Shown: positions 3,824 through 62,813 of the stretch, piece by piece
Layout of the letters: each line of letters starts with the position of its first letter
Position numbering within the stretch: the stretch's first letter is position 1
Source of the DNA: Elusimicrobiota bacterium
GTDB lineage: Bacteria; Elusimicrobiota; Elusimicrobia; 2-01-FULL-59-12
Length of the DNA stretch: 64,000 nt
Assembly (NCBI GenBank): GCA_041660185.1
Contig: JBAZWU010000004.1
Coordinates: 96,878 to 160,877, forward strand
Direction: 5' to 3'
Made by a program: the position numbers and the translations under genes
The notes under the pieces: model-generated
Databases searched by the model: none
Told to the model about the DNA's origin: nothing
What the model saw: only the letters and a program-made list of their open reading frames with translations

Positions 3824-5014
3824 CTATTGGTGTGCTAAAAAGCAGCTTTTGGCTATCAAAACGCCTGCATAGGTTCCTATGACATTGCCGGCGATGGCCA
3901 GAAGGAGGCCAAGAGGGGCTAGTCGCGGTTGGTAAACGCCAGCAACAATTGGGGTTGAGGCGGTTCCTCCAATGTTGGCCTGGCTGGCGGTGACAAGGAA
4001 AAACATAGGGACATGGAAGAAATAACCATAGAGGGCTAAGAGCAGGGCGTGCATGAGAACCAACACATAGGCCATGACGATCAATAGAGGCGCCTGGAAA
4101 ATGTATTGGAGTCTTGCGTTGGAGCCCATGGCCGCCAGAAGCAGATAAAGACAAAAGTATCCCCATCGCGAAGCGCCATACTTTTCAAGCCGCGTGGCCG
4201 GGGTAAAAGACAAAAGAATTCCGATGGCGGTGACCAGCAGAAACGCCCACCCGGAGGCTGATAAGACGGAACTGCGATGAGGAAGGAGTTGGCCAAGTTT
4301 CAAGCAACCCGCGCCAACAACGATGCCAAGACCGATAAGCCAAAGGGCATGAAGGGGAGATGAATGGTGTTTTTCAGATGATGAGCCGACAATCGTTTCA
4401 ATCCGTTTGACGACATCATCCAGGGTGCTTCGATCCGCCTTGACCCATCGGTCCCATGGTTCCTGCCAGGCCGCAAGCGCCACGAGGATTCCCATCCAGG
4501 AGTAAGTGATAACGGTATCGACGATAACCATGGGAGCGAAAACCGCTTCTGGTGTCTGGAGCGCTTCTTTGACCGCAAGCATGTTGGCGCTTCCCCCGAT
4601 CCAGCTGGCGGAAAGAGCCCCTACCCCCTTCCATGTTTCAGGCGGGAGCCAGTGGACAAAAAGGCTGTAGGAAGCTACGGCACCGACAGTGATGCCGCCA
4701 GCGCCGACAGCCATGGACGATAAAGCGATCGGTCCCAATTTCAAGATGGCCGGGAGGTTGATATTCAACAGCAGCAAAACCAGACAAGCAGAAAGAACAT
4801 AAGTTGTTAGAAAATCATAAACCGGAGATTTCGTCGGAAGCAAGCCCGCGGTGGCCAGAAGCATCGGCAGAAAGTAACACCAGAAAGCGCTGGGCAGATA
4901 GTGGTAGAGCTTCTTAAAAGCCGGGACACGCTCGAGGAAGAGCACCCCGCTGACGAGCCCCAAAAGCGCAAAGAACAAAATAATTGTCGGCATGATCACT
5001 CCAGTGTGGCACAT
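3824..5014 (-). CDS. polytopic integral membrane protein (possibly DUF819/YjcL-like)
   Basis: About 12 hydrophobic segments over 396 aa. The family assignment is tentative. Confidence 0.7.
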   Translation of the reverse strand: MCHTGVIMPTIILFFALLGLVSGVLFLERVPAFKKLYHYLPSAFWCYFLPMLLATAGLLPTKSPVYDFLTTYVLSACLVLLLLNINLPAILKLGPIALSSMAVGAGGITVGAVASYSLFVHWLPPETWKGVGALSASWIGGSANMLAVKEALQTPEAVFAPMVIVDTVITYSWMGILVALAAWQEPWDRWVKADRSTLDDVVKRIETIVGSSSEKHHSSPLHALWLIGLGIVVGAGCLKLGQLLPHRSSVLSASGWAFLLVTAIGILLSFTPATRLEKYGASRWGYFCLYLLLAAMGSNARLQYIFQAPLLIVMAYVLVLMHALLLALYGYFFHVPMFFLVTASQANIGGTASTPIVAGVYQPRLAPLGLLLAIAGNVIGTYAGVLIAKSCFLAHQ

Positions 5015-5199
5015 GGGCGGTTCCGGCTTACCGACCCGTGGCGCGCGGTTTCTTTTTCGACGTCTCGGCTCAGACCAGCCCGCGAACTAGTGGAACGCTC
5101 CTGGAGGTCGCCTCTGGCGACCAAGCCAGCGCGGTCTGAGCCGTCTTCGCCGAGACATCGGAGAAACCGCAAGCCACTCTCGGAAAGCCGGAACCGCCC
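5015..5199. repeat. long-hairpin element, family LH, copy 1 (about 185 bp)
   Basis: The terminal inverted arms GGGCGGTTCCGGCTT / AAGCCGGAACCGCCC enclose a core that is about 85% identical to the copy at 14094-14288. Confidence 0.75.
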
Positions 5200-5219
5200 C
5201 TTCCCAGGGCCCTCTCACA

Positions 5220-6287
5220 TTACATTCCAATTCCTGGGCCGATGCCCCGGACCGAAAGATGGGGGCCGCGGATCGTAAAGCCTCCACGGAGCGGCCGTGA
5301 ATCCAGCAGGAAAACCGAGTCCAGATCCACCCAATCAAAGACGCCGGTGCCGCAGGCCAGATGAACGCTGGCCGCCAGGCCGAGTTTGGACTCCTCCATA
5401 CACCCGATGCTCAGTCGCTTTTTGAATCGTTTTGCTACGCGAATAATCTCCAGTGCTCCCAATATGCCGCTTTTTGCGATTTTGATGTTGACGCCGTCAG
5501 CAGCGCCGGTTTTAAAAACCCGTTCAGCGTCAGCCGCGGTTCGAACGGACTCATCAGCCAGGAGGGGGAGCCAGCATTGTTTTCTGAAGAGTCGCGCTGA
5601 ACGCAAGTCATGGCGGGGAAATGGTTGTTCAAAAAAGACCACGGGAATCTTCTCCTGGATGACTTGCTTGCCAAAGGCCAGCGCTTCCGAGAGCCGGAAC
5701 CCTTGATTCCCATCAGCGACAAGTTTGGTTCGGGGCGCCGCTTTTCGGACGGCTCGAACCCTTTCATGGTCTTTTTGAGCGTGACCGGAGAGCTTAACTT
5801 TGAGCCGCCGGAAACCGCGTCGCGTCGCGGCCTTGGCAGATCTGTAAAGGTCATCCGGCGATCCGACCGACAACGTGAAATCTGTTTCAATGATTGTTTT
5901 TTCTCCACCCAAAAAATGTGAGAGCGATTGACCGGTCCACCGCGTGTAAACATCCAGGAGCGCGCATTCCATTGCTGCCGTAGCAGTCGGATGCTTGGCG
6001 TGGTGTCGCCAACAGCGGGCAATAAGGGAACGATAGGTTTCAATCGGCTGCCCGCCTAAATCGTGCGCCATCGTTTGAAGGACGCGCTTCATGGTCTTTT
6101 GCGACTGGTCCGGCATGGCGATGGAAGAGGAAGCTTCCGCTTTCCCGCGCGTGCCATCGGATAAGCGGATAATTATCTGGACGTTATCGGTCCTGGTCTT
6201 ATGACCGGCCGCGGTGACAAAAGGGTTTTTCAGGGGGAAAGAGACAGGAATGATGTTGGTGGATTGAATAACTGGCAAAGACGTCAT
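5220..6287 (-). CDS. dipeptide epimerase (L-Ala-D/L-Glu epimerase-like), enolase superfamily
   Basis: Mandelate racemase/muconate lactonizing enzyme-type motifs are present (KVKLSG, ADGNQG, FEQP, the lysine region KIAKSG). Confidence 0.8.
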   Translation of the reverse strand: MTSLPVIQSTNIIPVSFPLKNPFVTAAGHKTRTDNVQIIIRLSDGTRGKAEASSSIAMPDQSQKTMKRVLQTMAHDLGGQPIETYRSLIARCWRHHAKHPTATAAMECALLDVYTRWTGQSLSHFLGGEKTIIETDFTLSVGSPDDLYRSAKAATRRGFRRLKVKLSGHAQKDHERVRAVRKAAPRTKLVADGNQGFRLSEALAFGKQVIQEKIPVVFFEQPFPRHDLRSARLFRKQCWLPLLADESVRTAADAERVFKTGAADGVNIKIAKSGILGALEIIRVAKRFKKRLSIGCMEESKLGLAASVHLACGTGVFDWVDLDSVFLLDSRPLRGGFTIRGPHLSVRGIGPGIGM

Positions 6288-7252
6288 TGCGGCAGATATC
6301 GGCCAAACGTGATAACGCGTTTTCCGACCACGTCGCCGGATTCGATTTCCTCTATCGGTTTACCGAATTTTTCCCGTCCGCGGATCCGGTGAACGACCTG
6401 ACTGGTTTGGGGGGCTTCGATCAGCCAGTCTTTTCCTTCGTAGAGAGAGACATGCGTAATTTTGTCCGGCTGATCCGCCCGGGCCGAAAAGATCAGATCC
6501 GCCGGCTGGAGCTGAGCGCGCCGGATTTTTTCAGCGCGCAGGTGTTGTTCCATGGAATCGCGCGGCACAATGACTCCGTTCAGCCGGTAGCTCAGATGCA
6601 CGAGGCCTGAACAATCCACTCCCGCTAGCCGCATCTGGCCGGTGGGGTCTGCGGGAGAGAGGCCTCCCCAGACATACGGATCTCCCACAAAAAGCAGCGC
6701 AGTCACCAGAATCTGTCGTCGCCACCGATGCGGCGGCCATTTTCCGGAAAGGGAATGCAACTGCTTAGAACGGACCCATCCGGTGCGGCCGTTGTAAAGG
6801 TCGATTTTCATCCAGCCGAGACGTTCCTGGAGCCGACAGACTTTTGCGCTCAGCGGCAGCCGTAGGAGGAGTGTGTCGCCGGGCCGGTCATAAACGGAAG
6901 CCCATTTTGCGCTCACAACATGGGTGGGTGGTTTCGAAACGGTTGCCGTGCTCAGCGACGTGGCCTGAACCCATCCCGGGTAGCCTTCCCAGCGGTTGTT
7001 GTGCGTAAACTCCGGCTGCTCCAACGCTTCGATGAACAGCCAGGTTCCGCTGGATTCCTTGACGACAACAGATTCGCCGAACAATACCTGGGTTTCCTGC
7101 CAATCGTCGGATTCTCCGGCTGTGGGCAAAAAAGGAGATCGTCGCACATCGGCGACCGGAGTTTGGACGACAGCGGTGTTGAAGGGTTGCGCCCGGATCG
7201 GGGAAATCCACAGAAGGCTACTCAACAGCATCGCAACCAGAAAGCGGTTCAT
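6284..7252 (-). CDS. NlpC/P60 (C40) cell-wall peptidase with an N-terminal signal peptide and SH3-like region
   Basis: C-terminal GDPYVWGG...GVDCSGLV...H motif with the catalytic Cys and His. It overlaps the epimerase gene by 4 nt. Confidence 0.8.
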   Translation of the reverse strand: MNRFLVAMLLSSLLWISPIRAQPFNTAVVQTPVADVRRSPFLPTAGESDDWQETQVLFGESVVVKESSGTWLFIEALEQPEFTHNNRWEGYPGWVQATSLSTATVSKPPTHVVSAKWASVYDRPGDTLLLRLPLSAKVCRLQERLGWMKIDLYNGRTGWVRSKQLHSLSGKWPPHRWRRQILVTALLFVGDPYVWGGLSPADPTGQMRLAGVDCSGLVHLSYRLNGVIVPRDSMEQHLRAEKIRRAQLQPADLIFSARADQPDKITHVSLYEGKDWLIEAPQTSQVVHRIRGREKFGKPIEEIESGDVVGKRVITFGRYLPQ

Positions 7253-7260
7253 TTTTCTCC

Positions 7261-7331
7261 GTCATCCCCCGCGGGTTCTGGCGGGGGATCTATGCATCAA
7301 TGATGGATCCGCCAGACGTCTGGCGGATGAC
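7261..7331. repeat. MITE-like element, family 4 (GTCATCCCC...GGGGATGAC terminal inverted repeats with two internal hairpins)
   Basis: The terminal inverted repeats and internal hairpins are visible. Its end lies within 10 nt of the NlpC/P60 start codon and contains the GGAG Shine-Dalgarno. Confidence 0.75.
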
Positions 7332-7460
7332 GACTGTACGACTCTCTTATAGCATGAGTCTTGAGCGCCTGTCACTTTCCTCCAGCCCGTTGACAAGCCC
7401 CAGAAAGTCTGCTATATATATAATCAGCAATACAAACAATATATACCACTGACTATTAGA

Positions 7461-7955
7461 ATGAAACCTCGACGATTGACGATCAACCCTTCCCAGCCGG
7501 TATCGGACCCGCTCCTTCCGCGGGGGCTGATGGCGCGCATCGGGTATTTGCTGAACCGGCCGGCGCTGCAGATCCGCCAGAGGGCGCAGGGGATCCTGTC
7601 GCCGATGGGGCTGATCCCTCCTCATGTGGCTGTTTTGTCGACTCTGCATACCGAAGGGCCTCTGACCCAGCGGGCCCTGGGGCAATGGTTGAAGATCGAT
7701 CCCACCACCATGGTGTGGTTGATCGACGCTCTCGAAAAGAAAGGAGTGGTTCGCCGGGACGCGCATCCCCAAGACCGCCGGGCCTATCTGATCAAGCTGA
7801 CGCCTTCGGGAGAGGCTCTTTTCCGCCAGGCCAACAAGCAGCTGGACCAGATGGACAAGGAATTTTTAGCGCCGTTATCGAAAAACGAGCAAGGCGATCT
7901 TCGGCGGTTGCTCATCAAGCTGTTTCGAAATTTGACCACACAGGGGTTTAAATGA
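7461..7955 (+). CDS. MarR-family transcriptional regulator
   Basis: wHTH region (LSTLHTEGPLTQRALGQWLKIDPTTMVWLIDALEKKGVVRRDAHPQDRR). Confidence 0.8.
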   Translation: MKPRRLTINPSQPVSDPLLPRGLMARIGYLLNRPALQIRQRAQGILSPMGLIPPHVAVLSTLHTEGPLTQRALGQWLKIDPTTMVWLIDALEKKGVVRRDAHPQDRRAYLIKLTPSGEALFRQANKQLDQMDKEFLAPLSKNEQGDLRRLLIKLFRNLTTQGFK

Positions 7956-7987
7956 AACGCCGAAAAGATGAAGGCCGCAACATCTCT

Positions 7988-8093
7988 ACCCTCACCCCGA
8001 CCCTCCCCCTCAACAGGGGGAGGGAGCCGATAGAGCGGAAGTCGTTCCTTCTCCCTGTTGAGGGAGAAGGTGGCCGGAGGCCGGATGAGGGGC
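7988..8093. repeat. MITE-like element, family 3 (ACCCTCACCCC... TIR), copy A with a degenerate right end
   Basis: The left arm matches the copies at 29471 and 32977, including the hairpins CCCTCCCC-loop-GGGGAGGG and CCCTCTCCC-TGTTGA-GGGAGAAGG. Confidence 0.65.
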
Positions 8094-8116
8094 GATACCC
8101 AGTCATTGTTTTTATT

Positions 8117-9430
8117 GTGGTATTGCTTTTGTCAGGCAACGCTGTCGCCGCTACGCCCCATTTTGCTTTGAGCCTGTCCAGCGCCGAAACCGCGGCGCTG
8201 GCGTACTCGCCCCGCCTGAAAGCCGCGGCGGAGCAGATCGCGGCCTCCCGTGATCGTGCGGACAGCCAGAGGGCGCTCCTGATCCCGCGATTAACACTGG
8301 ATGGTTCCTATAAATATGTGACGGAAGTGCCGGAGATGCGCGGCACGGCGTATGGGGCCCATCGAAACACCTCCATTGGGCCCACGCTCACCTGGACGCT
8401 CTGGGACCAGGGCGCCCTTTATAAGGGATGGCGAAGCCAGCTCTCCCTGGTGCAATCCCAGAAGGATGCGGAAGCTCTGGCGCGTAACCAGATACTACTG
8501 GGGTCGCGGCTTGCCTATTTTCAGGTGCAGCTGGCCCTGGAACAGGTGCGGCTCATCGGGGACTTTATGAACCTGGCGGAGTCCCAGTATCAGGACATCC
8601 GCAAGCGTTTGTCCGCGGGTTCGGCCAGCCGTGTGGACGCGTTGTCCGCCCATCAGGAGGTCCTCAGCCGCCGGAAGGATTTTCGCCAGGCGCAGGCGGA
8701 TCTGGCCTCTGCTTTGCATGAACTGCTGACACTCACCGGCAACACTACGTCCTATGACCTCTCCCGGGTCGTGGATGGGCGCGTGGCTTCTTCCTTGCCG
8801 GCTTATACCGGATCCCCGACCCTGCTTCTGGAGCTTGATCCCCTGTCACCTTGCCCGGTAGAGCTGGCCGCGGCGGCAAAGCGTGACTTTGATGCGGTGC
8901 ATCCGCAGCTCCGGATGTATTCGGATCAGGCCGAGGCGAACCGTTTAAGTGCCAAGAGCCTGTCCGCCGGGCGATGGCCGAAAATTCTGCTCTCCGGACG
9001 CTCCAGTTATGACTACCCCAACGGCCCGGTGCTGGAAACCGTCCAGCAGAACGCGGTGTCCTTGTCCGCCAGTGTTCCACTTTTCGAAGCCTCAAAAACC
9101 CAGCGGGAGACTGATGAGCAAAACCGGCGCGCGGCTGCGGCTGAGGCGACTCGCCAACAATCGTTTGATGAATTACGCCGGGATTGGTTTAAAGCCCGCG
9201 ATCAGTATGGGGCTCTGCGCGATCAGGAGGCTCTGGACCGGGAGTCTGTTTCTGAAACCGGGGAAATCAGCCGGCTCAAGTATCTCATGTATAAGGAGGG
9301 CGGCCTGACCTTCCTTGAAGTTGAAAACGCCAATCTGAAGGCGCTGCAGTCCAAGGTGACGGCGGCGCTGACGCAGGCCCAGATGCTCATCCGTTTGGCG
9401 ACGCTGGACAGCCTGTCCGCGCATCGGTGA
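8117..9430 (+). CDS. TolC-like outer-membrane efflux protein
   Basis: Outer-membrane factor-type repeat structure. The track ORF (from 7952) runs through the MITE, so a GTG/ATT start near 8105-8117 before the signal-like VLLLSGNAVAA is more plausible. Confidence 0.7.
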   Translation: MVLLLSGNAVAATPHFALSLSSAETAALAYSPRLKAAAEQIAASRDRADSQRALLIPRLTLDGSYKYVTEVPEMRGTAYGAHRNTSIGPTLTWTLWDQGALYKGWRSQLSLVQSQKDAEALARNQILLGSRLAYFQVQLALEQVRLIGDFMNLAESQYQDIRKRLSAGSASRVDALSAHQEVLSRRKDFRQAQADLASALHELLTLTGNTTSYDLSRVVDGRVASSLPAYTGSPTLLLELDPLSPCPVELAAAAKRDFDAVHPQLRMYSDQAEANRLSAKSLSAGRWPKILLSGRSSYDYPNGPVLETVQQNAVSLSASVPLFEASKTQRETDEQNRRAAAAEATRQQSFDELRRDWFKARDQYGALRDQEALDRESVSETGEISRLKYLMYKEGGLTFLEVENANLKALQSKVTAALTQAQMLIRLATLDSLSAHR

Positions 9431-9447
9431 TTTAAAGGAGTTTAATT

Positions 9448-10215
9448 ATGGCCATTGACGATGAAAACAAAACAAAAAAGAGTCCCTTGAAGAAAATTCT
9501 TCTCGTGGGAGTCCTTCTTGCCGCGGGTGTGGCGATCAAAATGATTTTCTTTCGCCATACCTTTCTCTACGCCGGGACGCTGGAGGCGACGAAGGTGGAT
9601 CTCTCCGCGCAATTGGCTTCGGCGATCGCCGCGGTGAAAGTTCAGGAGGGGGATACGGTGATGTCGGGACAAGAACTGGTGACCCTCACGTGTGACGATG
9701 TTAAGGTGGCGGCGGGTCTTGCCCGGGCCAATTACGATCGCAGCCTGCGCCTGTATAAATCCGGCACCGTTTCCCAGGAGGTCTGGGACCAGGTCCGCAG
9801 CCGGAAAGAGGATTCGGATGTCCGCATGAGCTGGTGTTCGGTCCAGTCTCCGATAAGCGGGACGGTGCTCAGCCGCTACCGCGAGCCTGGGGAGTGGGTC
9901 ACCCCCGGCACCAAACTTCTGACGCTCGCCAATATCCGAGAGATCTGGGCTTATATCTATGTCTCCCAGGCCGACGTGGCCCACCTTAAGCCCGGGATGA
10001 AGTTGAAGGGTACGCTTCCGGAGTTAAACAACCGCGAGTTTGAGGGGATGATTCTCAAGATCAATGATGAGGCGGAGTTTACCCCCAAGAATGTCCAGAC
10101 GCAGGCAGAGCGCACGCGTCTGGTCTTTGGTGTGAAAGTAAGTTTCCAGGAATCCAACACGGAAGAAATTTTAAAACCCGGCATGACCATCGAGGTGGCC
10201 CTTCCCAAGGGCTAG
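9448..10215 (+). CDS. HlyD-family membrane-fusion (periplasmic adaptor) protein
   Basis: N-terminal TM segment followed by a biotinyl-lipoyl-like segment and a beta-barrel domain. It sits between TolC and the ABC genes. Confidence 0.7.
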   Translation: MAIDDENKTKKSPLKKILLVGVLLAAGVAIKMIFFRHTFLYAGTLEATKVDLSAQLASAIAAVKVQEGDTVMSGQELVTLTCDDVKVAAGLARANYDRSLRLYKSGTVSQEVWDQVRSRKEDSDVRMSWCSVQSPISGTVLSRYREPGEWVTPGTKLLTLANIREIWAYIYVSQADVAHLKPGMKLKGTLPELNNREFEGMILKINDEAEFTPKNVQTQAERTRLVFGVKVSFQESNTEEILKPGMTIEVALPKG

Positions 10216-10221
10216 GATGTC

Positions 10222-10959
10222 GTGGATGATCCCTTTTCTATCACCGTCCAAAACGTCCAAAAAAACTTCGGACCTACCATTGCGCTGGCCAACGTCTCCC
10301 TGACGTTTGAGGCTGGGTTGATGCACGGGGTGATCGGCCCCGAAGGCGCGGGAAAAACAACCCTCATGCGTCTCCTTCTCGGGCTCATGAAACCCGGTTC
10401 CGGCCGCATCACGTACTCCCGCGGCGGCCGTCCGGTTGATTTTGAAGCCATCCGGGCGCAGGTCGCCTACATGCCCCAGCAGCAGAGCCTTTACTCCGAC
10501 CTTTCCATCGACGAGCACCTGGATTTTTTTCGAGCCCTCTACAGCATCCCGCCGGAAGCTTACCAGACCCGGCGTCAGGAGCTTCTGCATCTGACGCGCT
10601 TGACCGAGTTCATCCACCGGCCCGCCGGCCATTTGTCCGGCGGGATGTATAAAAAGCTCGGCCTGATGTGCGCGCTCCTGCGCTCGCCCCAGGCGATCCT
10701 GCTGGACGAGCCGACCAACGGCGTGGACCCGATCAGCCGGCGGGAGTTCTGGGACCTGCTGTATCGCCTCTCCGATCAGAAAATCCTGATTCTGGTAACC
10801 ACCGCCTACATGGATGAAGCGGAGCGCTGTTCGCGGGTGCATCTGATGGAACGGGGTCAGGTGGTAGCGGTCGGTGAGCCGCGGGAGCTTCTGGCCCGGG
10901 AAGGCGCTGCCGGCTTTGATGAATTGTTCATCCGGCGGGCGGCGGAGAAGAATCAATGA
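10222..10959 (+). CDS. ABC transporter ATP-binding protein
   Basis: Walker A GPEGAGKTT, signature LSGGM, Walker B ILLDEPT. Confidence 0.9.
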   Translation: MDDPFSITVQNVQKNFGPTIALANVSLTFEAGLMHGVIGPEGAGKTTLMRLLLGLMKPGSGRITYSRGGRPVDFEAIRAQVAYMPQQQSLYSDLSIDEHLDFFRALYSIPPEAYQTRRQELLHLTRLTEFIHRPAGHLSGGMYKKLGLMCALLRSPQAILLDEPTNGVDPISRREFWDLLYRLSDQKILILVTTAYMDEAERCSRVHLMERGQVVAVGEPRELLAREGAAGFDELFIRRAAEKNQ

Positions 10960-11876
10960 GCGACGTCACCGTAGACGTGCGTGAGCTAGTCGTCAAATTC
11001 GGGGATTTTACCGCGGTCAACCGGATTACCTTTGCCGTGAACCGCGGCGAGATTTTTGGTTTTCTGGGCGCCAACGGTGCCGGCAAGACCACGACGATCC
11101 GCGTGCTCTGCGGGCTTCTCCGGCCGACGTCTGGTGACGTTCGTGTGGCCGGCATCGGTTTCGATCATGGCGAACTCGCGATTAAATCCAAGGTCGGCTA
11201 CATGTCGCAGAAATTCACGCTCTATAACGATTTGACGGTCGGCGAGAACCTCGATTTTATCGCCAGCCTGCGGAAGCTGGACCGGGAGGTGTATTTAAAG
11301 CGGCGCCAGGAACTGTTCGATTTTATTTCCTTCGACCAATCGCCGGCGTCCATCGTTCAGGATCTTTCGGGCGGGATCAAACAGCAAGTCTCTCTGGCCG
11401 CTGCGCTGCTGCATGATCCGGAGATTGTGTTTCTGGATGAACCCACCGCCGGGGTGGCGCCCGCGGCGCGCGAGCGGTTCTGGCGGCTGATTCAGCGCCT
11501 GGCCGGTCTCGGCAAAACGGTCTTTGTGACGACTCACTACATGGATGAGGCGGAACAATGCGGACGAATCGCCCTGATGCGGGAGGGCAAGATCGTTGTC
11601 ACTGACAGCCCGGCCAACCTGAAAAAGACGTTATTCCCCAAAGCGGTCCTCGAGTTTGAACCGGCGGGGAATCTCAGCTTTTTGGAAATCGCCGCCCTGG
11701 AGCACCACGAAGCGTTTTCATTTTTTGAACCCTACGGCCGGCGGTTCCATGCGGCGATCGGAAGTGACGCCATCTGGGAAAAGGTCCGCCCGGAGTTTGA
11801 GAAAAAGTTTCATATCCGTCCCATCCCGCCTTCTCTGGAAGATGTATTTATCCGTGCGGTGGAGGGGGGATCATGA
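10956..11876 (+). CDS. ABC transporter ATP-binding protein (second ATPase)
   Basis: Walker A GANGAGKTT, signature LSGG, Walker B FLDEPT. There is an ATGA overlap with the upstream gene. Confidence 0.9.
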   Translation: MSDVTVDVRELVVKFGDFTAVNRITFAVNRGEIFGFLGANGAGKTTTIRVLCGLLRPTSGDVRVAGIGFDHGELAIKSKVGYMSQKFTLYNDLTVGENLDFIASLRKLDREVYLKRRQELFDFISFDQSPASIVQDLSGGIKQQVSLAAALLHDPEIVFLDEPTAGVAPAARERFWRLIQRLAGLGKTVFVTTHYMDEAEQCGRIALMREGKIVVTDSPANLKKTLFPKAVLEFEPAGNLSFLEIAALEHHEAFSFFEPYGRRFHAAIGSDAIWEKVRPEFEKKFHIRPIPPSLEDVFIRAVEGGS

Positions 11877-12994
11877 CTCCTTCCTTTGTGTGGGCGCGGG
11901 CCTGGGCGGTGGCGCGCAAGGAAGTGTTCCACATCCGGAGGGATCCCTTTACTCTCACGCTCGCTTTGGGCCTGCCGGTCCTGATGGTCCTGGTTTATGG
12001 TTTTGCCATGGACTTCAACGTGAAGAACGTTCCCTTGTCTGTCAGCGACTCCGACCGCACCCAGGCTTCCCGCCGGTTAATAGACTTGTTCACCAGCTCC
12101 CATTACTTTCTCGTCAATCCCTCCGGCTCGATGGCTGAGGCGGTTCAGGATGTGACGGCGGAGCACGCCAAAGCCTGTCTGATCATCCCGCCCCGTTTTG
12201 AAAAGGATCTCCTGGCCGGCCGGGGGGCTGAGGCGCAGATCCTTCTGGATGGAGCGGATAACTCCACCGTTGGACCGGTGGCGGGATATCTTAATGGGAT
12301 CCAGACAATGGCTTCTCAGCGGATCGGCGGTTTTGACCCCCCGAAGCTCTATGAACTCCGGACGCGCTTCCTCTTTAATCCGGAGCTCAACAGCCGGTGG
12401 TTCGTGATTCCGGGTCTGACGGTCGTGGTGATGGCGATTCTGTCCATCATGCTGACCGCCCTCACCGTGGCGCGCGAGTGGGAAAACGGTTCCATGGAGC
12501 TGCTGCTCTCAACGCCGATCCAGCCGCTGGAGATTATCGTCGGCAAGCTCGCTCCGTACGCGGTTCTGGGAATCACGGCCCAGGTGTTTGTGTACGTGAT
12601 CGCGCGGACGGTTTTCCAGGTGCCGTTTGTCGGGAACCTGGCTGTTTTCGCGCTGGGGTGTGTGCTGTGTCTGGGCACCTATCTGGCCCAGGGGATTTTA
12701 ATCTCCGTGATCGCGCGCAAGCCGCAGGTGGCAATGCAGTTTTCCATGCTCTCGGGGATGCTGCCGACCAACCTGCTCTCCGGATTCGTCTTCCCGATCG
12801 CCAGCATGCCGCTGGTCTTCCGTTATCTGACGATGATTTTTCCGGCGCGGTGGTTCATGACGATTTCCCGGGATACGTACCTCAAGGGATCCAGCCTGCT
12901 GGAACTGAGCGGGGCCTTCTTGATGTTGACACTTTTCTGCGGGGGGATGATCCTGGCGGCCACGCGCCGTTTTAAGAGAGACCTGGAACCATGA
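11873..12994 (+). CDS. ABC-2 type transporter permease
   Basis: Six-TM ABC-2 (YbhS/YbhR-like) layout. ATGA overlap. Confidence 0.8.
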   Translation: MTPSFVWARAWAVARKEVFHIRRDPFTLTLALGLPVLMVLVYGFAMDFNVKNVPLSVSDSDRTQASRRLIDLFTSSHYFLVNPSGSMAEAVQDVTAEHAKACLIIPPRFEKDLLAGRGAEAQILLDGADNSTVGPVAGYLNGIQTMASQRIGGFDPPKLYELRTRFLFNPELNSRWFVIPGLTVVVMAILSIMLTALTVAREWENGSMELLLSTPIQPLEIIVGKLAPYAVLGITAQVFVYVIARTVFQVPFVGNLAVFALGCVLCLGTYLAQGILISVIARKPQVAMQFSMLSGMLPTNLLSGFVFPIASMPLVFRYLTMIFPARWFMTISRDTYLKGSSLLELSGAFLMLTLFCGGMILAATRRFKRDLEP

Positions 12995-14094
12995 TCAACC
13001 GGACGCTCATCGGTTTTGTTAAAAAGGAGCTCACCCAGGCGCTGCGCGACCCGCGGATGAAATTCATTTTGTTTCTGGTTCCCACCGTCCAGTTGACGCT
13101 CTTCGGGGTGGCGATCTCCAGCGAAGTCAAAAACATCCGCCTGGCCGTGGTCTTTGATTCCAAAGACACGGTGATGCGCGACATTTATGAGCGAAGCCTC
13201 GCCAGCGGGTGGTTCATTCCGGCTCGGACATCGGGAGAGAATCCGTTTACGATGATTCAGGATGGGAAGGCGGATGCGGTGCTCTTGCCGCCGCCGGGCG
13301 GTTTCACGCGGGCCCTCGGGCGCGGAGATGCCAAACTGCAGCTCCTGGTGGAATCGACCAACGTCACCCAGGCGCAAGCGGTTGAAAATTATATGCAGGC
13401 CATTGTCCGGCAGACGGTGCGGGATGATCTTCGGCTCACGCTGCCGGAGCCTCCGATCCGCTTTGATGTTCGCGTCCTGTTCAACCCGTCGTTGCAGTCG
13501 GTCATCTTCATGGTGCCGGGCGTGATGTGCATGGTCATGCTGATGACCACGATGATTCTTACCAACGTGGCGATCGTACGCGAAAAAGAGATGGGCACGT
13601 TTGAAATGCTCATTTCCGCGCCGGTGTCCCGGGCCGAAGTCATCTACGGGAAAACGATTCCCTATGTCGTGATCGGCATGGCCGGACTGCCGCTCCTGTT
13701 AGGCGTCGCGATATTGGTGTTTCATGTCCCGATGAGGGGGTCCTTTTGGGTTCTGAGTGGGGCGTCATTGGCCTTTGTCTGTACAACGGTAGCGATCGGA
13801 ACGCTGATTTCTACCTTTTGCCAGAACCAGCAGCAGGCAAGCATGGCCGGCTTTCTGGTCATGTTCCCATTCTTGATGTTCTCGGGACTCTTTTTCCCGA
13901 TCGAAAATATGCCGGGGTCCATCCGGTGGATGGCGTATCTGGATCCGCTGGCCCATTACCTGGGTCTTTTGCGTAACATTATGCTCAAAGGCGGAGACGT
14001 CCGGTATGTGGGGGTGCACGTGGCTTCCCTGGCCGCCATGGCGGTGGCGAGTATTGTCATCAGCTTCCGGCGGTTCCATACCACGCTGGGGTAG
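12991..14094 (+). CDS. ABC-2 type transporter permease (paralogue)
   Basis: Homologous to the preceding permease. ATGA overlap. Confidence 0.8.
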   Translation: MINRTLIGFVKKELTQALRDPRMKFILFLVPTVQLTLFGVAISSEVKNIRLAVVFDSKDTVMRDIYERSLASGWFIPARTSGENPFTMIQDGKADAVLLPPPGGFTRALGRGDAKLQLLVESTNVTQAQAVENYMQAIVRQTVRDDLRLTLPEPPIRFDVRVLFNPSLQSVIFMVPGVMCMVMLMTTMILTNVAIVREKEMGTFEMLISAPVSRAEVIYGKTIPYVVIGMAGLPLLLGVAILVFHVPMRGSFWVLSGASLAFVCTTVAIGTLISTFCQNQQQASMAGFLVMFPFLMFSGLFFPIENMPGSIRWMAYLDPLAHYLGLLRNIMLKGGDVRYVGVHVASLAAMAVASIVISFRRFHTTLG

Positions 14095-14288
14095 GGAGGG
14101 AGCCGCCCTGGATTTCCGACCCGTGGCGTGCGGTTTCTTTTTCGGCGATTCGGCTCAGACCGCCCGCGAACTCGTGGAATGCTCCTGGAGTTCGCCTTTG
14201 GCGACCGAGCCAGCGCGGGCGTAAAGCGTCTTCGCCGAATCGCTTGAAACCGCAAGGCCACTCTCGTAAACCCAGGGCGGCTCCCTCC
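14094..14288. repeat. long-hairpin element, family LH, copy 2
   Basis: The core aligns to 5015-5199. The terminal arms differ (GGGAGCCGCCCTGG / CCAGGGCGGCTCCC) but still pair. The internal stem also carries compensatory changes (GATTCGGC/GCCGAATC versus GTCTCGGC/GCCGAGAC). Confidence 0.75.
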
Positions 14289-14308
14289 TCTTGAAGATAT
14301 ATGCATCC

Positions 14309-14504
14309 GGAGACCCAGGGAGGGGTCTGCTGGAGGCGACCCTCTGAGGCGCGACGGACCGGACCCGAGGTTATTGACCGGCGATGGCTGGTTCACCGAA
14401 GGTGAACTAAAAAGGGTATTCCCCTAGTTTCGCCGGGCTTCGGGTCCGGGACGGCGATAAACGCCGAAGCCTAGTCGCCGGAAGAAGGCCCCTCCCTGGG
14501 TCTC
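14309..14504 (+). ncRNA. candidate structured RNA or unique long-hairpin element (about 196 nt, closed by a perfect 17-bp stem)
   Basis: GGAGACCCAGGGAGGGG at 14309 pairs perfectly with CCCCTCCCTGGGTCTCC at 14488. Internal nested stems (CCGGACCCGA/TCGGGTCCGG, GTTCACC/GGTGAAC) give an extended imperfect hairpin. No second copy is present in the window. 6S RNA is one hypothesis. Confidence 0.3.
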
Positions 14505-14570
14505 CGGAAACGCTCCTTGCCAATGGTGAAGGGCGAAGAACCGGAATAGATTTGCTATAAAGGAAGCGGC

Positions 14571-15209
14571 ATGATTATTACGATTCTCTCTGACGCGGAA
14601 AGCTGGAAAAACGCCTACATCCCGGAACTGATTCACGATTTAAAAGCGCGGAAGCATCGCGTGCGATGGGTTCATCGCGCGGCAGATGTTCCACTTGGCG
14701 AACTGGCCTTTATTCTTGGATTTTTCCAGATCGTTCCCTCAAAAGTCCTCTCCCGGAATAAGCACAATCTGGTTGTCCACGAAAGTCGGTTGCCCAAAGG
14801 CCGGGGATGGTCTCCTATGACTTGGCAAGTGCTCGAAGGGTCTAACCGGATTCACCTGACGCTTTTTGAAGCGGTGGAAAAAGTGGACGCCGGGACCGTC
14901 TATCTGCGTGGAGAGGTTCCGCTCAAAGGGCATGAGCTCCTGGTGGAAATCCGCGAAAAGACCATTCGGGAAATGCTGCGGCTCTGCCGGACGTTTGTGA
15001 AACAATACCCGGCCCTGATCGCTCGCGGGAAGCCTCAGACAGGCCGGCCAACTTTTTACGCGCGGCGAAAAGCCTCTGACAGCCGGCTGGACCCCCGGAA
15101 ATCCATTGAAAAGCAGTTCAATCTTCTCCGCATGGTCGATAACGAAAGTTACCCGGCCTTCTTCGAACTCAAAGGCCACACCTACCGCCTCAAAATCGAA
15201 AAGAAATAA
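14571..15209 (+). CDS. formyltransferase-family protein (N-terminal formyl-transferase domain only)
   Basis: HESRLPKGRGWSP matches the HxSLLPxxRG formyltransferase catalytic motif. At 212 aa it lacks the Fmt C-terminal domain. Confidence 0.7.
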   Translation: MIITILSDAESWKNAYIPELIHDLKARKHRVRWVHRAADVPLGELAFILGFFQIVPSKVLSRNKHNLVVHESRLPKGRGWSPMTWQVLEGSNRIHLTLFEAVEKVDAGTVYLRGEVPLKGHELLVEIREKTIREMLRLCRTFVKQYPALIARGKPQTGRPTFYARRKASDSRLDPRKSIEKQFNLLRMVDNESYPAFFELKGHTYRLKIEKK

Positions 15210-15217
15210 TTGGATTC

Positions 15218-15241
15218 GTAGGGGCGCACCGCTGTGCGCCC
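15218..15241. repeat. REP family 1, single unit
   Basis: GTAGGGGCGCACCGCTGTGCGCCC lies immediately after the formyltransferase stop. Confidence 0.8.
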
Positions 15242-15909
15242 GCAGCTCTTGGTTTGCCCCGCGGTCTCTGGCGGCCCCGACCTCCCGTTGCCGTTTTGCT
15301 TGACGGGGCTGCACCGACTGTTTGACTCAACAGGTGGACGGTGCGGGGGGATCCATCAAGTGGTGCTCGGTGCGCCGCCCCGCACATCGCGCTCCAACCG
15401 GCCTGACAGCTCCGTCTTGTCCGCTCGAGCAGCCTGCGGAACTCAGCGCCAGAAGTCTGGCGCTTCAGACAGTCCTCGGCTGACCCGCTCTCGCTCCCAA
15501 GCCGCAGGCCTCACGTCGCGCTTCTGCGCAGGGCGGCCCCCTCGCAATAAAGATGATCCCTTTTGGGAACCACCGGCCGTTCTGTTGCGGGGGTCCGATT
15601 TTGACTTAACTGGTAGGTCGCCCTTACCGTTGGAGAACATACCGATTGTGACACGTTCGTACACCCTCCGAATGCCGAAGTATCATCACCGCCGATACGC
15701 CGCCGCCCTAACGGGCCGATAAACGGTGGTGTCGAACACCACACCAGCGGTGTGCTATCACCTGGATCCGCCATGATCTACGGAAAGACGATTTTACGTG
15801 AAATCACGTCGTTGATGGGCTCGCGTCGGAAATGGTGTAATCTTGACAGTTGTGTGTTGACCGGGAGGCGCTGGCGCGCTCTCGCGTAACCGTAGGAGGA
15901 TCAATAGCC

Positions 15910-16251
15910 ATGGATATCTTCCTGAGCCATAGTAACCACGCCGACGACTTGCCTCTGATTAATATGCTGTCATTGGCTTTTAAGGTGCTCGGAATCAATC
16001 TCCACGTTGTCGAACGAGCTCCGCGCCCCGGCAAAGCTATCGGAGAGAAGATCGTTCAGACAATGGACGCCTGCGACGAGGTGCTTGTCCTGTATACGAA
16101 TCATGCTCAGGGACGCCAAGATGTTGAGGCTGAAATCGGTTTGGCCAAGGCCAGCAGCAGGCCGGCTCCTCCCGTTTTCATTACGGAATTCCCGGCGAAT
16201 AAGCCAGCTCTCGTTCAGGGCTGTGAGGAGGGGGTGAGGGGACGGGGGTGA
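15910..16251 (+). CDS. standalone TIR-like (DUF1863/TIR_2-like) domain protein, about 113 aa
   Basis: Starts MDIFLSHSNHADD, then LVLYTNHAQ, a pattern typical of TIR-like folds. GGAGGA lies 8 nt upstream of the ATG. The track ORF starts earlier at 15850. Confidence 0.45.
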   Translation: MDIFLSHSNHADDLPLINMLSLAFKVLGINLHVVERAPRPGKAIGEKIVQTMDACDEVLVLYTNHAQGRQDVEAEIGLAKASSRPAPPVFITEFPANKPALVQGCEEGVRGRG

Positions 16252-16268
16252 GGGGACGTAGTTGCAGC
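16230..16268. repeat. REP family 2-like half element with an internal tandem duplication (GGGGGTGAGGGGACG x2, then AGGGGACGTAGTTGC)
   Basis: Matches the left arm of the family 2 elements at 48109, 56246 and 61638. Confidence 0.55.
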
Positions 16269-16380
16269 TTTGCATCTTCGATCGCTGCCCACCTGGTCAT
16301 CTGCCCGGCAATCACTCCCGCGCCAACAACCTAATTGCCTAAGAACGTCCCTGGTGTTCCCGTCAGATGGCGCCCGGAGA

Positions 16381-25578: not shown

Positions 25579-25586
25579 ACGGGATC

Positions 25587-25669
25587 GTCATTCCCGGCGG
25601 TCTCTGGCCGGGAATCCACCGTGCCGTATAACGATGATGGGTCCCCCGCCAGTGGCCGCGGGGGATGAC
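25587..25669. repeat. MITE-like element, family 4
   Basis: GTCATTCCC...GGGGATGAC terminal inverted repeats with two internal hairpins, lying between recO and glyQ. Confidence 0.75.
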
Positions 25670-25704
25670 GACGGAGTGGCAAACGGAGAACTTCTTTAAT
25701 TTCA

Positions 25705-28652: not shown

Positions 28653-29460
28653 CGTTTGGCTTATCTTTTCCAACATCGTTTTGCCGATGGGCGCCGGCCT
28701 TACCTTTTTTGCGTTAGCCCGCTACGCGTCGCATGTCGCTCCGATGCGGTTTCTGGTGACGGGAGATACCACGTACCGTGGCGCGGCCTGGGGGTTCTTC
28801 TTTTTCGGAGTTTATTTGATCAGCCGTCCCCTGCAGGTTCTGCTGGGTCCTCTTCCGATGCCTTCCGTGGTTACCTGTATCCGGGAATTCTGCATGATGG
28901 GGATTTTCGCTCCCGCCATCTTTGTGGCGATGATGAGCCTCTGCTTCGGGAGCGAGAATATCCCGCGCAAACTGATCGTCTGGATCTTTGGAGTGGGACT
29001 GGTGCTGGGGTTCTCCTATGTGGTCCTCGAGCCGCAGGCGATTCGCGGCTCCGAGATCATCTTCTGGATCGGCAATTATCCGGCCTACGACGGGACCTGG
29101 TTTCTGAACGGGGACCCGCGCAGCCAGGCCCTGATTTCGATTATTTATGTGATCCAGTTCATTGATCCGGTTCTTCTGCTGTTCCTGGCCGGGGTCATTG
29201 TTTTCCGGCACGCCCGGCATTACCCGCCCGCGAAAAAGGTGGTGTATGACAACATGCCGAAAAAACTCTACCTGCTTTCCGCCGCGGTTTTTGCCTTTCC
29301 CATGGGCATGTTTATCGCCGGTGTTTTGGGCCTTTTCTTTCACATCCGTTTCCAATGGTGGCTCTACTATCTGGGTGCCCTGATCTCCGGGTTAATCGAA
29401 TCGGTGAGCCTCAGCCTTCCTCTGCGGAAAGATGTTCAAGTCAGCGAACACGCCCGATAA
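28645..29460 (+). CDS. hypothetical integral membrane protein
   Basis: About 8 hydrophobic segments. No recognisable motif. Confidence 0.6.
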   Translation: MHDVWLIFSNIVLPMGAGLTFFALARYASHVAPMRFLVTGDTTYRGAAWGFFFFGVYLISRPLQVLLGPLPMPSVVTCIREFCMMGIFAPAIFVAMMSLCFGSENIPRKLIVWIFGVGLVLGFSYVVLEPQAIRGSEIIFWIGNYPAYDGTWFLNGDPRSQALISIIYVIQFIDPVLLLFLAGVIVFRHARHYPPAKKVVYDNMPKKLYLLSAAVFAFPMGMFIAGVLGLFFHIRFQWWLYYLGALISGLIESVSLSLPLRKDVQVSEHAR

Positions 29461-29470
29461 CATCAGACAA

Positions 29471-29585
29471 ACCCTCACCCCAACCCTCTCCCTCAGCAGG
29501 GAGAGGGGGGATGATATTTTCTGACGCTCCCTCCCCCTGTTGAGGGGGAGAGCCGGCCTGCCGACCGGCAGGCAGGGGTGAGGGT
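29471..29585. repeat. MITE-like element, family 3, complete copy
   Basis: ACCCTCACCCC... / ...GGGGTGAGGGT terminal inverted repeats with internal hairpins. Confidence 0.75.
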
Positions 29586-29657
29586 CGATGTAACGATTCC
29601 TGATTTCCTTTCGAAAAATCCATTGCATTTGATAGGAACCCCTCTATACTTCCCAGT

Positions 29658-31779: not shown

Positions 31780-32961
31780 ATGACGGATCACCTTTCCATC
31801 GTTTGTTCCCATTGCAAAAAGCCGCTGGCGGAGGAGGCCAATTTCTGCCACCTCTGCGGGGCGCCCACCGGCACCGCCAGCTGGCAGACCACGGACGGTC
31901 AAACCAACTTTGTTCAAGGGCTCCTGAATCTCGCCCGGGGCCTGACCTCGACGCTGGATGTCGATGCGCTCCTGAAACGGATCGGTCAATCCGCTGAACA
32001 CATGTTTTTGTGCGAAGCGTCTGCCCTCATGCTGCTGGATGAAGACAAGGGCCATCTTTACTTCAAAGTGGCGACCGGAGAAAAGGGCGGCGTGGTGACC
32101 CGTTTCCGCGTGAAAGTCGGGGAGGGAATCGCCGGATGGGTCGCCGAAAAACGGGAACCCGTCATGATTAACGACGTGAAATCCGATACGCGGTTCTCCG
32201 GGCAGTTCGACCAGGCATCCGGTTTTATCACCCGGTCGGTGCTCTGCGTTCCCATGCTCGCGGCCGGAGAGCTTGTCGGGGTTCTGGAAATCCTGAACAA
32301 GAAAGATCCCGCCGGTTTCTCCGAAGCGGACCGCAGCCTTTTGGAGAGTCTGGCCGGACTGGCGGCCCTGGCGATCGCCAACGCCAGGCTTCTAGGAGGG
32401 TTTCGTAATTTCTACAGCAACATGATCGAAATTCTGATCAGCGCCATTGAGGCGCGGGACGCCCGGATGGCGGGCCATTGCTGGCGGGTGGCCCAGCGGG
32501 CCAGCTCCCTCGGGCGGCGTCTGGGGCTGGAGGGGCAGGTCCTGAAAGATCTTTATTATTCGGCCCTGCTGCATGACATCGGGTTCTTAAAGGTTGCCGG
32601 CAGCTGGAATATGGCGCGCATCCTGGTCATGGAAAGCCCGCATATGGAGCAGACGCATCCCCTGATCGGCGCTGAAATGATTCGAGGGATCGATATCCTG
32701 AAAGGCGCCGCCGCCTTGATCCCTTTTCATCATGAATGTTATGACGGATCCGGTTCCCCGCGGGGGCTCCGGAACGACGATATCCCTTTAGGCGGTCACA
32801 TCCTGTCGGTCATTGAACACTGCGAAGAGATGCGCATGAACGGTTATTCCGTCGAGCAGGTCTTGGCGGCGCTGGAAGAGAAATCCGGGAAAGAATTCCA
32901 TCCGGAGGTGGCGCAAGCTTACCGGGACGTCCTGAGCGCCGAAGAAGCCAAGCCGATATAA
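31780..32961 (+). CDS. zinc-ribbon–GAF–HD-GYP signalling protein (likely c-di-GMP phosphodiesterase)
   Basis: N-terminal CSHCKK...CHLCG, a GAF domain, then the HD-GYP-like stretch HDIGF...HHECYDGSGSPRGL. Confidence 0.7.
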   Translation: MTDHLSIVCSHCKKPLAEEANFCHLCGAPTGTASWQTTDGQTNFVQGLLNLARGLTSTLDVDALLKRIGQSAEHMFLCEASALMLLDEDKGHLYFKVATGEKGGVVTRFRVKVGEGIAGWVAEKREPVMINDVKSDTRFSGQFDQASGFITRSVLCVPMLAAGELVGVLEILNKKDPAGFSEADRSLLESLAGLAALAIANARLLGGFRNFYSNMIEILISAIEARDARMAGHCWRVAQRASSLGRRLGLEGQVLKDLYYSALLHDIGFLKVAGSWNMARILVMESPHMEQTHPLIGAEMIRGIDILKGAAALIPFHHECYDGSGSPRGLRNDDIPLGGHILSVIEHCEEMRMNGYSVEQVLAALEEKSGKEFHPEVAQAYRDVLSAEEAKPI

Positions 32962-32976
32962 TTTTACCCTCACCCC

Positions 32977-33066
32977 AGCCCTCCCCCTCCGCAGGGGGAG
33001 GGAGCATCAGATTCTTTACAGCCATCATCCCCTCTCCCTGTTGAGGGAGAGGGTCAGGGTGAGGGT
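32977..33066. repeat. MITE-like element, family 3
   Basis: ACCCTCACCCCAGCCC / GGGTCAGGGTGAGGGT terminal inverted repeats. Confidence 0.75.
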
Positions 33067-33110: not shown

Positions 33111-33121
33111 TCCTTAATGTC

Positions 33122-33153
33122 GTCATCCCCCGCCAGAACCCGCGGGGGATGAC
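33122..33153. repeat. family 4 element, short single-hairpin form (GTCATCCCCCGCC...GCGGGGGATGAC)
   Basis: The same termini as the longer copies enclose one hairpin. Confidence 0.65.
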
Positions 33154-33178
33154 GAGAGGCAGTCGAAAGGAAGTCATC

Positions 33179-36021: not shown

Positions 36022-36160
36022 GTCATCCCCGAGTGACCCTGTCCCGTCACTTGTCGACGTTCTTGGTGGTCGGGACGGCCCCGACAATGTGACCTCACTA
36101 GAGGACGGGGCTGTCGGGGATCCATCCTTCGATTCCCCGCCAGAGACCGCGGGGAATGAC
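36022..36160. repeat. MITE-like element, family 4, long variant
   Basis: Starts 10 nt after the upstream stop codon. GTCATCCCC / GGGGAATGAC termini. Confidence 0.75.
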
Positions 36161-36284
36161 GATGTTTTTGTTAGGCCCCGGTTGCCAGACACTTGGCGAC
36201 CGGGGCTTTTACACCTTTTTACACTCAATCCTTTCCGTTGACATTTTCGCGATTCGGGGGTAAATAAAATCCGTTGCGAGGATT

Positions 36285-37982: not shown

Positions 37983-37994
37983 TCAACAGGATTT

Positions 37995-38073
37995 GTAGGG
38001 GCGGACCGCTGTCCGCCCGAATATTGGATTTCATGAGGGTCCTGAGGGCGGGCGCACATCGGTGCGCCCCGAC
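37995..38073. repeat. REP family 1 doublet with a compensated variant stem (GGGCGGAC...GTCCGCCC)
   Basis: Intercistronic, between the FecR-like gene and the beta-barrel gene. Confidence 0.8.
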
Positions 38074-38080
38074 ATTTCTC

Positions 38081-45143: not shown

Positions 45144-45176
45144 TCAGGGGAATGGTATCGGCCATCCATCGGATTT

Positions 45177-45240
45177 GTAGGGGCGCACCGCCTGTGCGCC
45201 CGCCATTGGATTGTCCGGGCGGACAGCGGTCCGCCCCTAC
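45177..45240. repeat. REP family 1 doublet
   Basis: Lies between the giant-protein stop and the PorV-like start. Confidence 0.8.
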
Positions 45241-45247
45241 AGTTCTC

Positions 45248-48108: not shown

Positions 48109-48139
48109 TAGGGGCTAGGGGACGTAGTTGCCTTGTTGC
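48109..48139. repeat. REP family 2 arm (TAGGGGCTAGGGGACGTAGTTGCC), left flank of the transposase
   Basis: Inverted relative to the arm at 49182-49207. Confidence 0.75.
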
Positions 48140-48178
48140 TTTCCCAGCGAATAAATCCACCCTAAAGCTATCTAAGAA

Positions 48179-49189: not shown

Positions 49190-49207
49190 GGCAACTACGT
49201 CCCCTAC
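49182..49207. repeat. REP family 2 arm (GGCAATAAGGCAACTACGTCCCCTAC), right flank of the transposase
   Basis: Reverse complement of the left-arm consensus. Confidence 0.75.
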
Positions 49208-49345
49208 GCCCTTCGTTCAAGTTGAGCCCTTCTCCCCAGAAGAAACGCATCTTAAATTCAGCACGATTCAATCATTTTTGTTCAAAATGGCGCCGAGGCG
49301 GTTTTTCCTTGAAAACTTCTCTTTGCGGGGGTAAGGGAGAACACA

Positions 49346-56339: not shown

Positions 56340-56343
56340 GACC

Positions 56344-62804: not shown

Positions 62805-62813
62805 AGAGGAAAA

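Follow-up and report, generated by a model that had tools for sequence, protein, structure and literature searches.

The REP–RAYT system comprises inverted repetitive extragenic palindromic (REP) sequences of 20 to 40 nt with a conserved 5′ GTAG-type head, which are mobilized by REP-associated tyrosine transposases (RAYTs). Among mobile REPINs, hairpins commonly show compensatory changes on both sides (PMC3116915). Correia elements are ligands or substrates of RNase III and influence the genes next to them (PMC2649163). Perfect stems can also be created in one step by template switching, which can produce two-sided changes in a DNA palindrome without selection (PMC8794818). Here, we describe three long hairpins, copies A, B, and C, in a 64-kb stretch of contig JBAZWU010000004.1 (positions 96,878 to 160,877, hereafter the window). 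The source is an uncultured Elusimicrobiota metagenome-assembled genome (GCA_041660185.1), whose nearest database relatives stand at 64 to 70% protein identity. We read the three hairpins as members of one family of palindromic intergenic repeats, non-autonomous and restricted to its lineage, in a genome already crowded with REP-type palindromes, an interpretation to which we give about an even chance of being right. It fits the insertion at a closed site, the occurrence of both orientations, the intergenic positions, the restriction to one lineage, the lack of a promoter or known RNA family, and the repeat-rich genome. The copies behave like ERIC, Correia, and REPIN sequences yet belong to none of them, and on the best reading the family is new.

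A preliminary description of the window had reported two hairpin elements, both at gene ends, that share a core of about 150 nt at roughly 85% identity. Copies A and B were indeed found at the reported positions (Table 1), the only shift being that the hairpin of B begins at 14095 and not at 14094, since base 14094 still belongs to the preceding gene, as the G of its TAG stop. The MAFFT alignment gives a mean column identity of 85% over cores of 153 and 152 nt, and blastn gives 84.5% over 168 nt. Both copies are intergenic, B abutting the permease stop and A lying between two genes. A 29-nt end motif, CCGACCCGTGGCGYGCGGTTTCTTTTTCG, occurs exactly twice in the 64 kb against 0 expected from 100 shuffles. 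The count of two elements was right for A and B but overlooked a third member, copy C, which lies 17 nt downstream of B and is inverted relative to it. The strand displayed for copy A is the family "sense" orientation by convention only. Copy A, and copies B and C together, are identical in Logan contigs of SRR18595301, an independent assembly, and the same 194 nt of copy B were found in a Joint Genome Institute (JGI) metagenome contig (L023) that is 99.9% identical to the window. The three hairpins are not assembly artifacts.

At least copy A arrived by insertion; the operon junction that it occupies is closed in relatives. Its neighbors are two minus-strand genes: copy A lies 20 nt past the epimerase stop and 21 nt short of the DUF819 start, and it accounts for 185 of the 226 nt between the two. 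In these relatives, which are distant (64–68% protein identity), the same two genes are 2 nt apart (L049), about 8 nt apart (L068), or overlapping (L070 and L071). Since the flanking genes abut or overlap in three related Elusimicrobiota lineages, copy A is a lineage-specific insertion into the junction. A ribosome-binding site for DUF819, GGAG, lies at about 5000–5003, 11 nt past the hairpin. Copy A appears to have replaced the translational coupling of epimerase and DUF819 with a 226-nt structured spacer. All three copies lie between genes, within 10 kb and in both orientations, and A and B are oppositely oriented relative to local transcription.

We searched for the family beyond the window. 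An exact-pattern scan with the 5′ end motif gave 0 matches in 185,579 species genomes, the source genome not being among them. A JGI metagenome scan with GGCGNGCGGTTTCTTTTTCG returned 46 loci, of which 45 share the pattern only (in coding sequence or terminator-like stems) and 1 is the same organism. The tip pattern gave two chance matches only among viral contigs, blastn gave no match in plasmids and phages, and six-frame translations of A, B, and C gave none among 5.8 billion proteins, where spurious open reading frames (ORFs) over other copies were sought. No element was found in 654 kb of fetched loci, including relatives and Nitrospiria efflux-operon loci, also when the covariance models R1 and R2 were used, and in the Nitrospiria loci none follows the gene homologous to the permease next to copy B. 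As far as these searches can see, the family is restricted to this Elusimicrobiota lineage.

The elements were also compared with known RNAs. The preliminary description had offered a structured RNA gene family as one option, which found no support in Rfam 15: the whole window has no match at the gathering score, and at E ≤ 10 the elements give only chance matches of 13 to 17 bits on either strand. A tRNA and tmRNA scan found none. There is no promoter-like site in or beside the three elements in the two regions scanned, where the sole promoter-like match (4744–4717, minus strand) is inside the DUF819 coding region and unrelated. No T-run follows the closing stems, and nothing else in the elements resembles a terminator except for weak 5-bp mini-hairpins within the arms. 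The elements were therefore rejected as intrinsic terminators, as there is no T-run past the closing stems and only a 5-bp mini-hairpin with TTTCTTTTT in the 5′ arm of A and B. In this arm of both copies (5036–5058 and 14121–14143), CCGTGGCGYGCGG followed by TTTCTTTTTC makes a weak terminator-like hairpin that would compete with the long-range pairing.

The conserved unit of the family is a three-way-junction tip of about 66 nt, which is the part common to A, B, and C. The center of C (minus strand) is tied to the center of A and B by nhmmer at E = 5e-4 to 1e-2. Covariance model R2, built from A and B alone to avoid circularity and run over the whole window with filters off, scored C at 31 bits (E = 1.6e-5), the next window match being at 14.6 bits. 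No further family member was found in the 64-kb window with R1 or R2. The tip runs AGCC, P1 (CGCG), AACTAG, H1 (GGA..TCC), H2 (7 bp with a 3-nt loop), AGCCAK, and P1′. Between A and C, two pairs of H2 are altered on both sides (G-C to U-A and G-C to A-U), and B has one mismatch in this helix. C can be aligned with A or B only over the tip and part of the 5′ arm, and elsewhere it has an extra side hairpin. In the A/B subfamily, the tip is accompanied by inverted ends of about 22 nt that match at about 17 of 22 nt (CCGACCCGTGGCGCGCGGTTTC against the reverse complement of the 3′ end). The core ends of A and B (CCGA, GTGGC, and GCGGTTTC) are nearly invariant, whereas one inner helix is about 30% diverged. 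Ends of this type are part of the hairpin and are lacking in C.

Table 1. Coordinates of the three hairpins, their parts, and the adjoining genes in the window.
Feature	Position	Strand	Description or basis
Copy A, whole hairpin	5015–5199	+	185 nt; sequence and fold, z = −9.9
Copy A, closing stem, left arm	5015–5029		GGGCGGTTCCGGCTT; pairs perfectly with 5185–5199, 15 bp
Copy A, closing stem, right arm	5185–5199		AAGCCGGAACCGCCC; pairs with left arm
Core common to A and B, copy A	5031–5183	+	153 nt; MAFFT alignment
Tip module of A	5074–5139	+	R1/R2 covariance models, 89–96 bits; P1 (CCGCG/CGCGG), AACTAG, H1 (GGA..TCC), H2 (GGTCGCC TCT GGCGACC), AGCCAG
Copy B, whole hairpin	14095–14288	+	194 nt; sequence and fold, z = −10.6
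Copy B, closing stem, left arm	14095–14111		GGAGGGAGCCGCCCTGG; pairs perfectly with 14272–14288, 17 bp
Copy B, closing stem, right arm	14272–14288		CCAGGGCGGCTCCCTCC; pairs with left arm
Core common to A and B, copy B	14116–14267	+	152 nt; MAFFT alignment
Tip module of B	14158–14223	+	R1/R2 covariance models, 87–94 bits
Copy C, whole hairpin	14306–14508	−	203 nt; third long hairpin, inverted repeat I13; nhmmer match; fold, z = −8.7
Copy C, closing stem, arm	14306–14325		TCCGGAGACCCAGGGAGGGG; pairs perfectly with 14489–14508, 20 bp
Copy C, closing stem, other arm	14489–14508		pairs with 14306–14325
Tip module of C	14374–14442	−	R2, 31 bits; H2 (GTTCACC TTC GGTGAAC), P1 (CGGCG/CGCCG); AACTAG and AGCCA kept
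DUF819 gene	3824–4993	−	downstream of A; start at 4993 agrees with N-termini of relatives
Dipeptide (L-Ala-D/L-Glu) epimerase gene	5220–6287	−	upstream of A in minus-strand operon; Pfam MR_MLE
ABC-2 permease gene	12991–14094	+	last of efflux operon (7461–14094); stop abuts copy B
Formyltransferase-like gene	14571–15209	+	downstream of C; context

Folded as RNA on the displayed strand, copies A and B each form one long hairpin, at −117.6 and −123.2 kcal/mol, and 0 of 200 shuffles of either fold as well (z scores in Table 1). The folding check that the preliminary description had proposed thus returned long hairpins for both. The closing stems of A, B, and C (15, 17, and 20 bp) are all Watson-Crick with no G-U pair. 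Each is unique within the window and belongs to no window repeat family, and the best ungapped match between closing-stem arms of A and B is 8 of 13. The stems had been described as different in sequence while still pairing, which is correct and extends to perfect pairing; they had also been counted as covariation, and here the claim does not stand, because homology between the stems is not demonstrable and G-U intermediates are lacking. Perfect, G-U-free, and specific to each copy, the closing stems look like the product of a templated or insertional origin rather than of slow, stepwise compensatory evolution.

Inside the core, paired changes were counted by laying a hand-built structure of the A core (53 pairs) on the A/B alignment. 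In B, 41 pairs are identical, 3 are changed on both sides with pairing kept, 1 is changed on one side to G-U, 1 is a mismatch in A but pairs in B, 1 coincides with a gap in the alignment, and 6 are broken. All three two-sided changes are within the 12-bp helix S4 (CGACGTCTCGGC/GCCGAGACATCG), in a count that depends on the alignment of a 2-nt indel in this helix. Two of them are adjacent, and therefore few events may be involved. Half of the broken pairs are in the helix GGCTCAGACC/GGTCTGAGCC, the others being single pairs in S1, S4, and H2. Three or more two-sided, pair-preserving changes are expected with P = 0.005 (20 random substitutions, 200,000 simulations), and the excess between A and B is real. 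For the tip (n = 3 sequences), pairing holds in 88.9% of cells and covariation is seen at two pairs, a result that is equaled by 98 of 500 shuffles and is not significant. The correspondence of GTCTCGGC/GCCGAGAC in one copy to GATTCGGC/GCCGAATC in the other had been given correctly in the preliminary description. Its conclusion that covariation here is the signature of a selected structure is borne out as to the excess of two-sided changes, but has against it the six broken pairs, a tip signal not above shuffles, and the alternative of template switching.

Several observations weigh against a mobile repeat. In the 64-kb window read there are three copies only, all within 10 kb. Neither B nor C has a direct target-site duplication, and in all three copies the two flanks are complementary in inverted orientation; A has only a 5-nt ATGTG repeat (5010–5014 and 5216–5220, minus strand), offset by 16 nt. 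The upstream copy of this repeat overlaps the epimerase stop as TAATG and may be a target duplication or chance. No transposase, RAYT, or parent element is present among the scanned window proteins (27 ORFs, up to about 34 kb). A simple decaying repeat does not fit the pattern of conservation, as the tip is the best conserved part even in the very diverged copy C, its helices kept via two-sided changes, and the ends of A and B are near-invariant while an inner helix has diverged. Such conservation of the tip and its helices would be expected of a functional RNA sooner than of a repeat in decay. There is also a strand preference: the minus strand of A and B and the plus strand of C (A−/B−/C+) fold at −124.3, −128.6, and −135.9 kcal/mol, and their complements at −117.6, −123.2, and −118.8 kcal/mol, such that the former strand folds 5 to 17 kcal/mol better in all three copies. 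It has 12 G-U pairs versus 5 on the complement and an alignment consensus energy of −23.4 versus −16.5 kcal/mol, and its consensus includes an invariant GGCU/AGUU helix, with two G-U pairs, which is impossible on the other strand. By this modeling, the preference is a hint of an RNA-level constraint and not a demonstration.

The conserved tip and the strand preference speak for a family of structured non-coding RNAs, either stand-alone or cis-acting, with the three-way-junction tip on its long stem as the functional part and A−/B−/C+ as the transcribed strand. The tip is kept, with two compensatory H2 pairs, in copy C, the rest of which is too diverged to align, the two-sided changes between A and B are in excess, and all three copies prefer the same family strand in folding energy, G-U pairs, and consensus. 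On that strand A and C, but not B, are transcribed with the neighboring genes, just upstream of a gene start. We nevertheless consider an RNA family unlikely, and keep it in view because conservation is highest in the tip, C included, and because the A/B ends are near-invariant. Neither strand matches Rfam, no element has a promoter-like site in or beside it or more than weak 5-bp mini-hairpins as terminator-like matches, B is antisense to its neighbors, and three related lineages lack A at the corresponding site. B has lost six of the pairs, the covariation among three sequences does not exceed that of shuffles, and RNA-level selection alone does not give perfect, G-U-free closing stems. It would also be unusual for an RNA gene to have three paralogs in 10 kb, with two placed directly head to head. 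The preliminary description had left the choice between an RNA gene family and a mobile hairpin whose transposition needs the fold; the mobile option gains support from the position of A at a site closed in three lineages, and we regard the mobile hairpin as the more likely of the two.

The fold may also be under no selection at all, with DNA palindromes made and repeatedly "repaired" by replication template switching and with the paired changes and outer stems as mutational by-products. This is a documented mechanism (PMC8794818), under which perfect, copy-specific outer stems are expected and one or two templated events predict three two-sided changes clustered in one 12-bp helix, two of them adjacent. 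It leaves unexplained the conservation of a 66-nt branched, non-palindromic tip between A/B and C and the presence of a 150-nt core at two unrelated sites. For this reason template switching works only as a supplement to copying or insertion, and as the whole explanation it seems to us quite improbable. The core might instead home into the loop of pre-existing gene-end hairpins, either terminators or REPs, with the closing stems being host sequence. Some insertion sequences (IS1397 and members of IS110/IS1111) target palindromes, the closing stems differ wholly among copies, and the core junctions are sharp against them (TT then CCGA on one side, TCG then AA on the other). However, relatives have no hairpin between the two genes at site A, the outer stems are not followed by T-runs, and they belong to no window repeat family, and we hold this explanation to be very unlikely. 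There is, finally, a small likelihood that the module of about 66 nt (P1, AACUAG, H1, H2, AGCCAK) is itself the real unit, a new structured module placed atop long, copy-specific perfect hairpins. It would then be either a new RNA gene family read from the A−/B−/C+ strand or the part by which a new kind of mobile element is recognized, one that enters palindromes or creates them and makes no direct target duplications.

If A, B, and C are mobile palindromic repeats, the element would spread as single-stranded DNA or be copied, helped by an enzyme encoded elsewhere that recognizes the folded tip or the ends. Such an enzyme might be a Y1/HUH transposase, either RAYT-like or IS200-like, or a different recombinase. 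The perfect closing stems specific to each copy would arise at or after insertion by one of two routes, in which the element inserts into the center of a palindrome or template switching copies one flank inverted. The process that makes the closing stems may also keep the inner stems paired. In a transcribed spacer, the imperfect duplex of about 90 bp would be a passive RNA hairpin, acting by analogy with ERIC and Correia as an RNase III substrate or exonuclease barrier, and it would uncouple or stabilize neighboring cistrons. Copy A would be transcribed within an operon, and B and C in a 3′ or 5′ untranslated region.

Gene order near the elements is conserved with relatives over about 25 kb, with two differences. 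Besides the opened junction at site A, a MarR-efflux operon (7461–14094) is situated between the NlpC/P60 operon and the formyltransferase gene, with B and C at its right edge. This operon encodes MarR, an outer-membrane factor, HlyD, two ABC ATPases, and two ABC-2 permeases. It is absent here in related Elusimicrobiota, and the closest homologs of its last gene come from Nitrospiria (80% identity), which together make horizontal acquisition likely. Between their formyltransferase gene and NlpC/P60 operon, relatives carry a Y1 (IS200/RAYT-type) transposase gene (L068, 8385–8930) or a TacA1/GNAT toxin-antitoxin pair (L072, 4016–4824); this spot is a variable hotspot. A small ORF (15850–16251) between the formyltransferase and aspartyl-tRNA synthetase genes gives a borderline match to the TIR domain, at 27.8 bits where the cut-off is 28, and L068 has different, unannotated ORFs there. 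Some further candidates were tried and rejected. A composite transposon bounded by A and B was dismissed because the genes beside A are in conserved synteny with relatives. An integron attC site does not agree with the lack of RYYYAAC or GTTRRRY cores at the ends, the length of 185 to 203 nt as against 57 to 141 nt, or the housekeeping neighbors in conserved synteny. 6S RNA, retron, and bridge-RNA or omega-RNA were discarded because the architecture or context did not suit or no model matched.

At least four further families of palindromic repeats are present in the window. One is a REP family with a GTAG head (GTAGGGGCGCACCGCTGTGCGCCC) at 219–335, 15205–15257, 37982–38085, 45164–45250, and 61095–61215, mostly as inverted doublets 40 to 70 nt apart; these are REPIN-like and imply a RAYT-type transposase somewhere in the genome. 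The second (CGTCATCCCCCGCGG..CCGCGGGGGATGACG) follows many genes in both orientations (7260–7289, 25584–25679, 33120–33163, 36131–36170, 58129–58224, and 62721–62814). The third is nested (7974–8071, 29457–29590, and 32952–33066), its outer inverted repeat ACCCTCACCCC/GGGGTGAGGGT enclosing two hairpins (CCCTCCCCCTC..GGGGGAGGG and CCCTCTCCCTGTTGAGGGAGAGGG), and is another composite long hairpin. The fourth, richer in A+T (TAGGGGACGTAGTTGCCTTWTTGCC), occurs at 16251–16278, 48110–48155, 49177–49219, 56245–56351, and 61634–61724, with perfect hairpins of 29 to 32 bp at 56263–56340 and 61638–61712. Short-read assemblies of the same organism break inside C (14359, the end of L023) and in REP hairpins (7275 and 15418, Logan contig ends), which suggests that such sequences are repeated elsewhere in the genome.

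If the three hairpins are mobile repeats, they constitute a new repeat family for the Elusimicrobiota, a phylum whose repeat content is essentially undescribed, and show cleanly how a 200-nt hairpin can open a junction between operon genes. If the tip is instead the functional unit, as in the minority reading, it would be a new RNA or single-stranded DNA module. For genome scans, the lesson is that different but pairing sequences at the base of a palindromic repeat do not amount to covariation, and that paired changes in DNA palindromes need a template-switching control before an RNA gene is claimed.

Like classical bacterial miniature inverted-repeat transposable elements, the present family is small and non-coding, with an insertion polymorphism at site A and, in A and B, inverted ends that are part of the hairpin; unlike them, it has no direct target-site duplication or known parent insertion sequence. 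With template-switch hairpins it shares perfect stems that can be made in one step and multi-base paired changes (PMC8794818), but template switching is a mutational process and not an element, and does not account for a dispersed, conserved core and tip. The likeness to REPINs, which are REP doublets mobilized by RAYTs, lies in being non-autonomous, hairpin-forming intergenic repeats in which two-sided compensatory changes are common (PMC3116915), and in the setting, given the GTAG-headed doublets of this genome and the Y1 transposase gene of the relative L068. A REPIN, however, is two conserved inverted REPs with a variable spacer, whereas here it is the central tip that is conserved and the arms that vary, no GTAG head is seen in A, B, or C, and no RAYT is encoded among the 27 ORFs scanned. 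ERIC and the Correia elements of Neisseria (CREE) are likewise imperfect palindromes (100–160 bp) that are confined to transcribed intergenic spacers, occur in both orientations, vary in presence between orthologous sites, and form long RNA hairpins. They differ in sequence, as no similarity emerged from the Rfam, plasmid, and phage searches (the ERIC and Correia consensus sequences were not compared directly), in the TA target duplication of Correia, which is absent from the directly read flanks of A, B, and C, and in an integration host factor (IHF)-site core, none having been identified in the present element. At 185 to 203 nt, the Elusimicrobiota element is longer than either, its branched tip rather than its ends is best conserved, and each copy has its own perfect closing stem.

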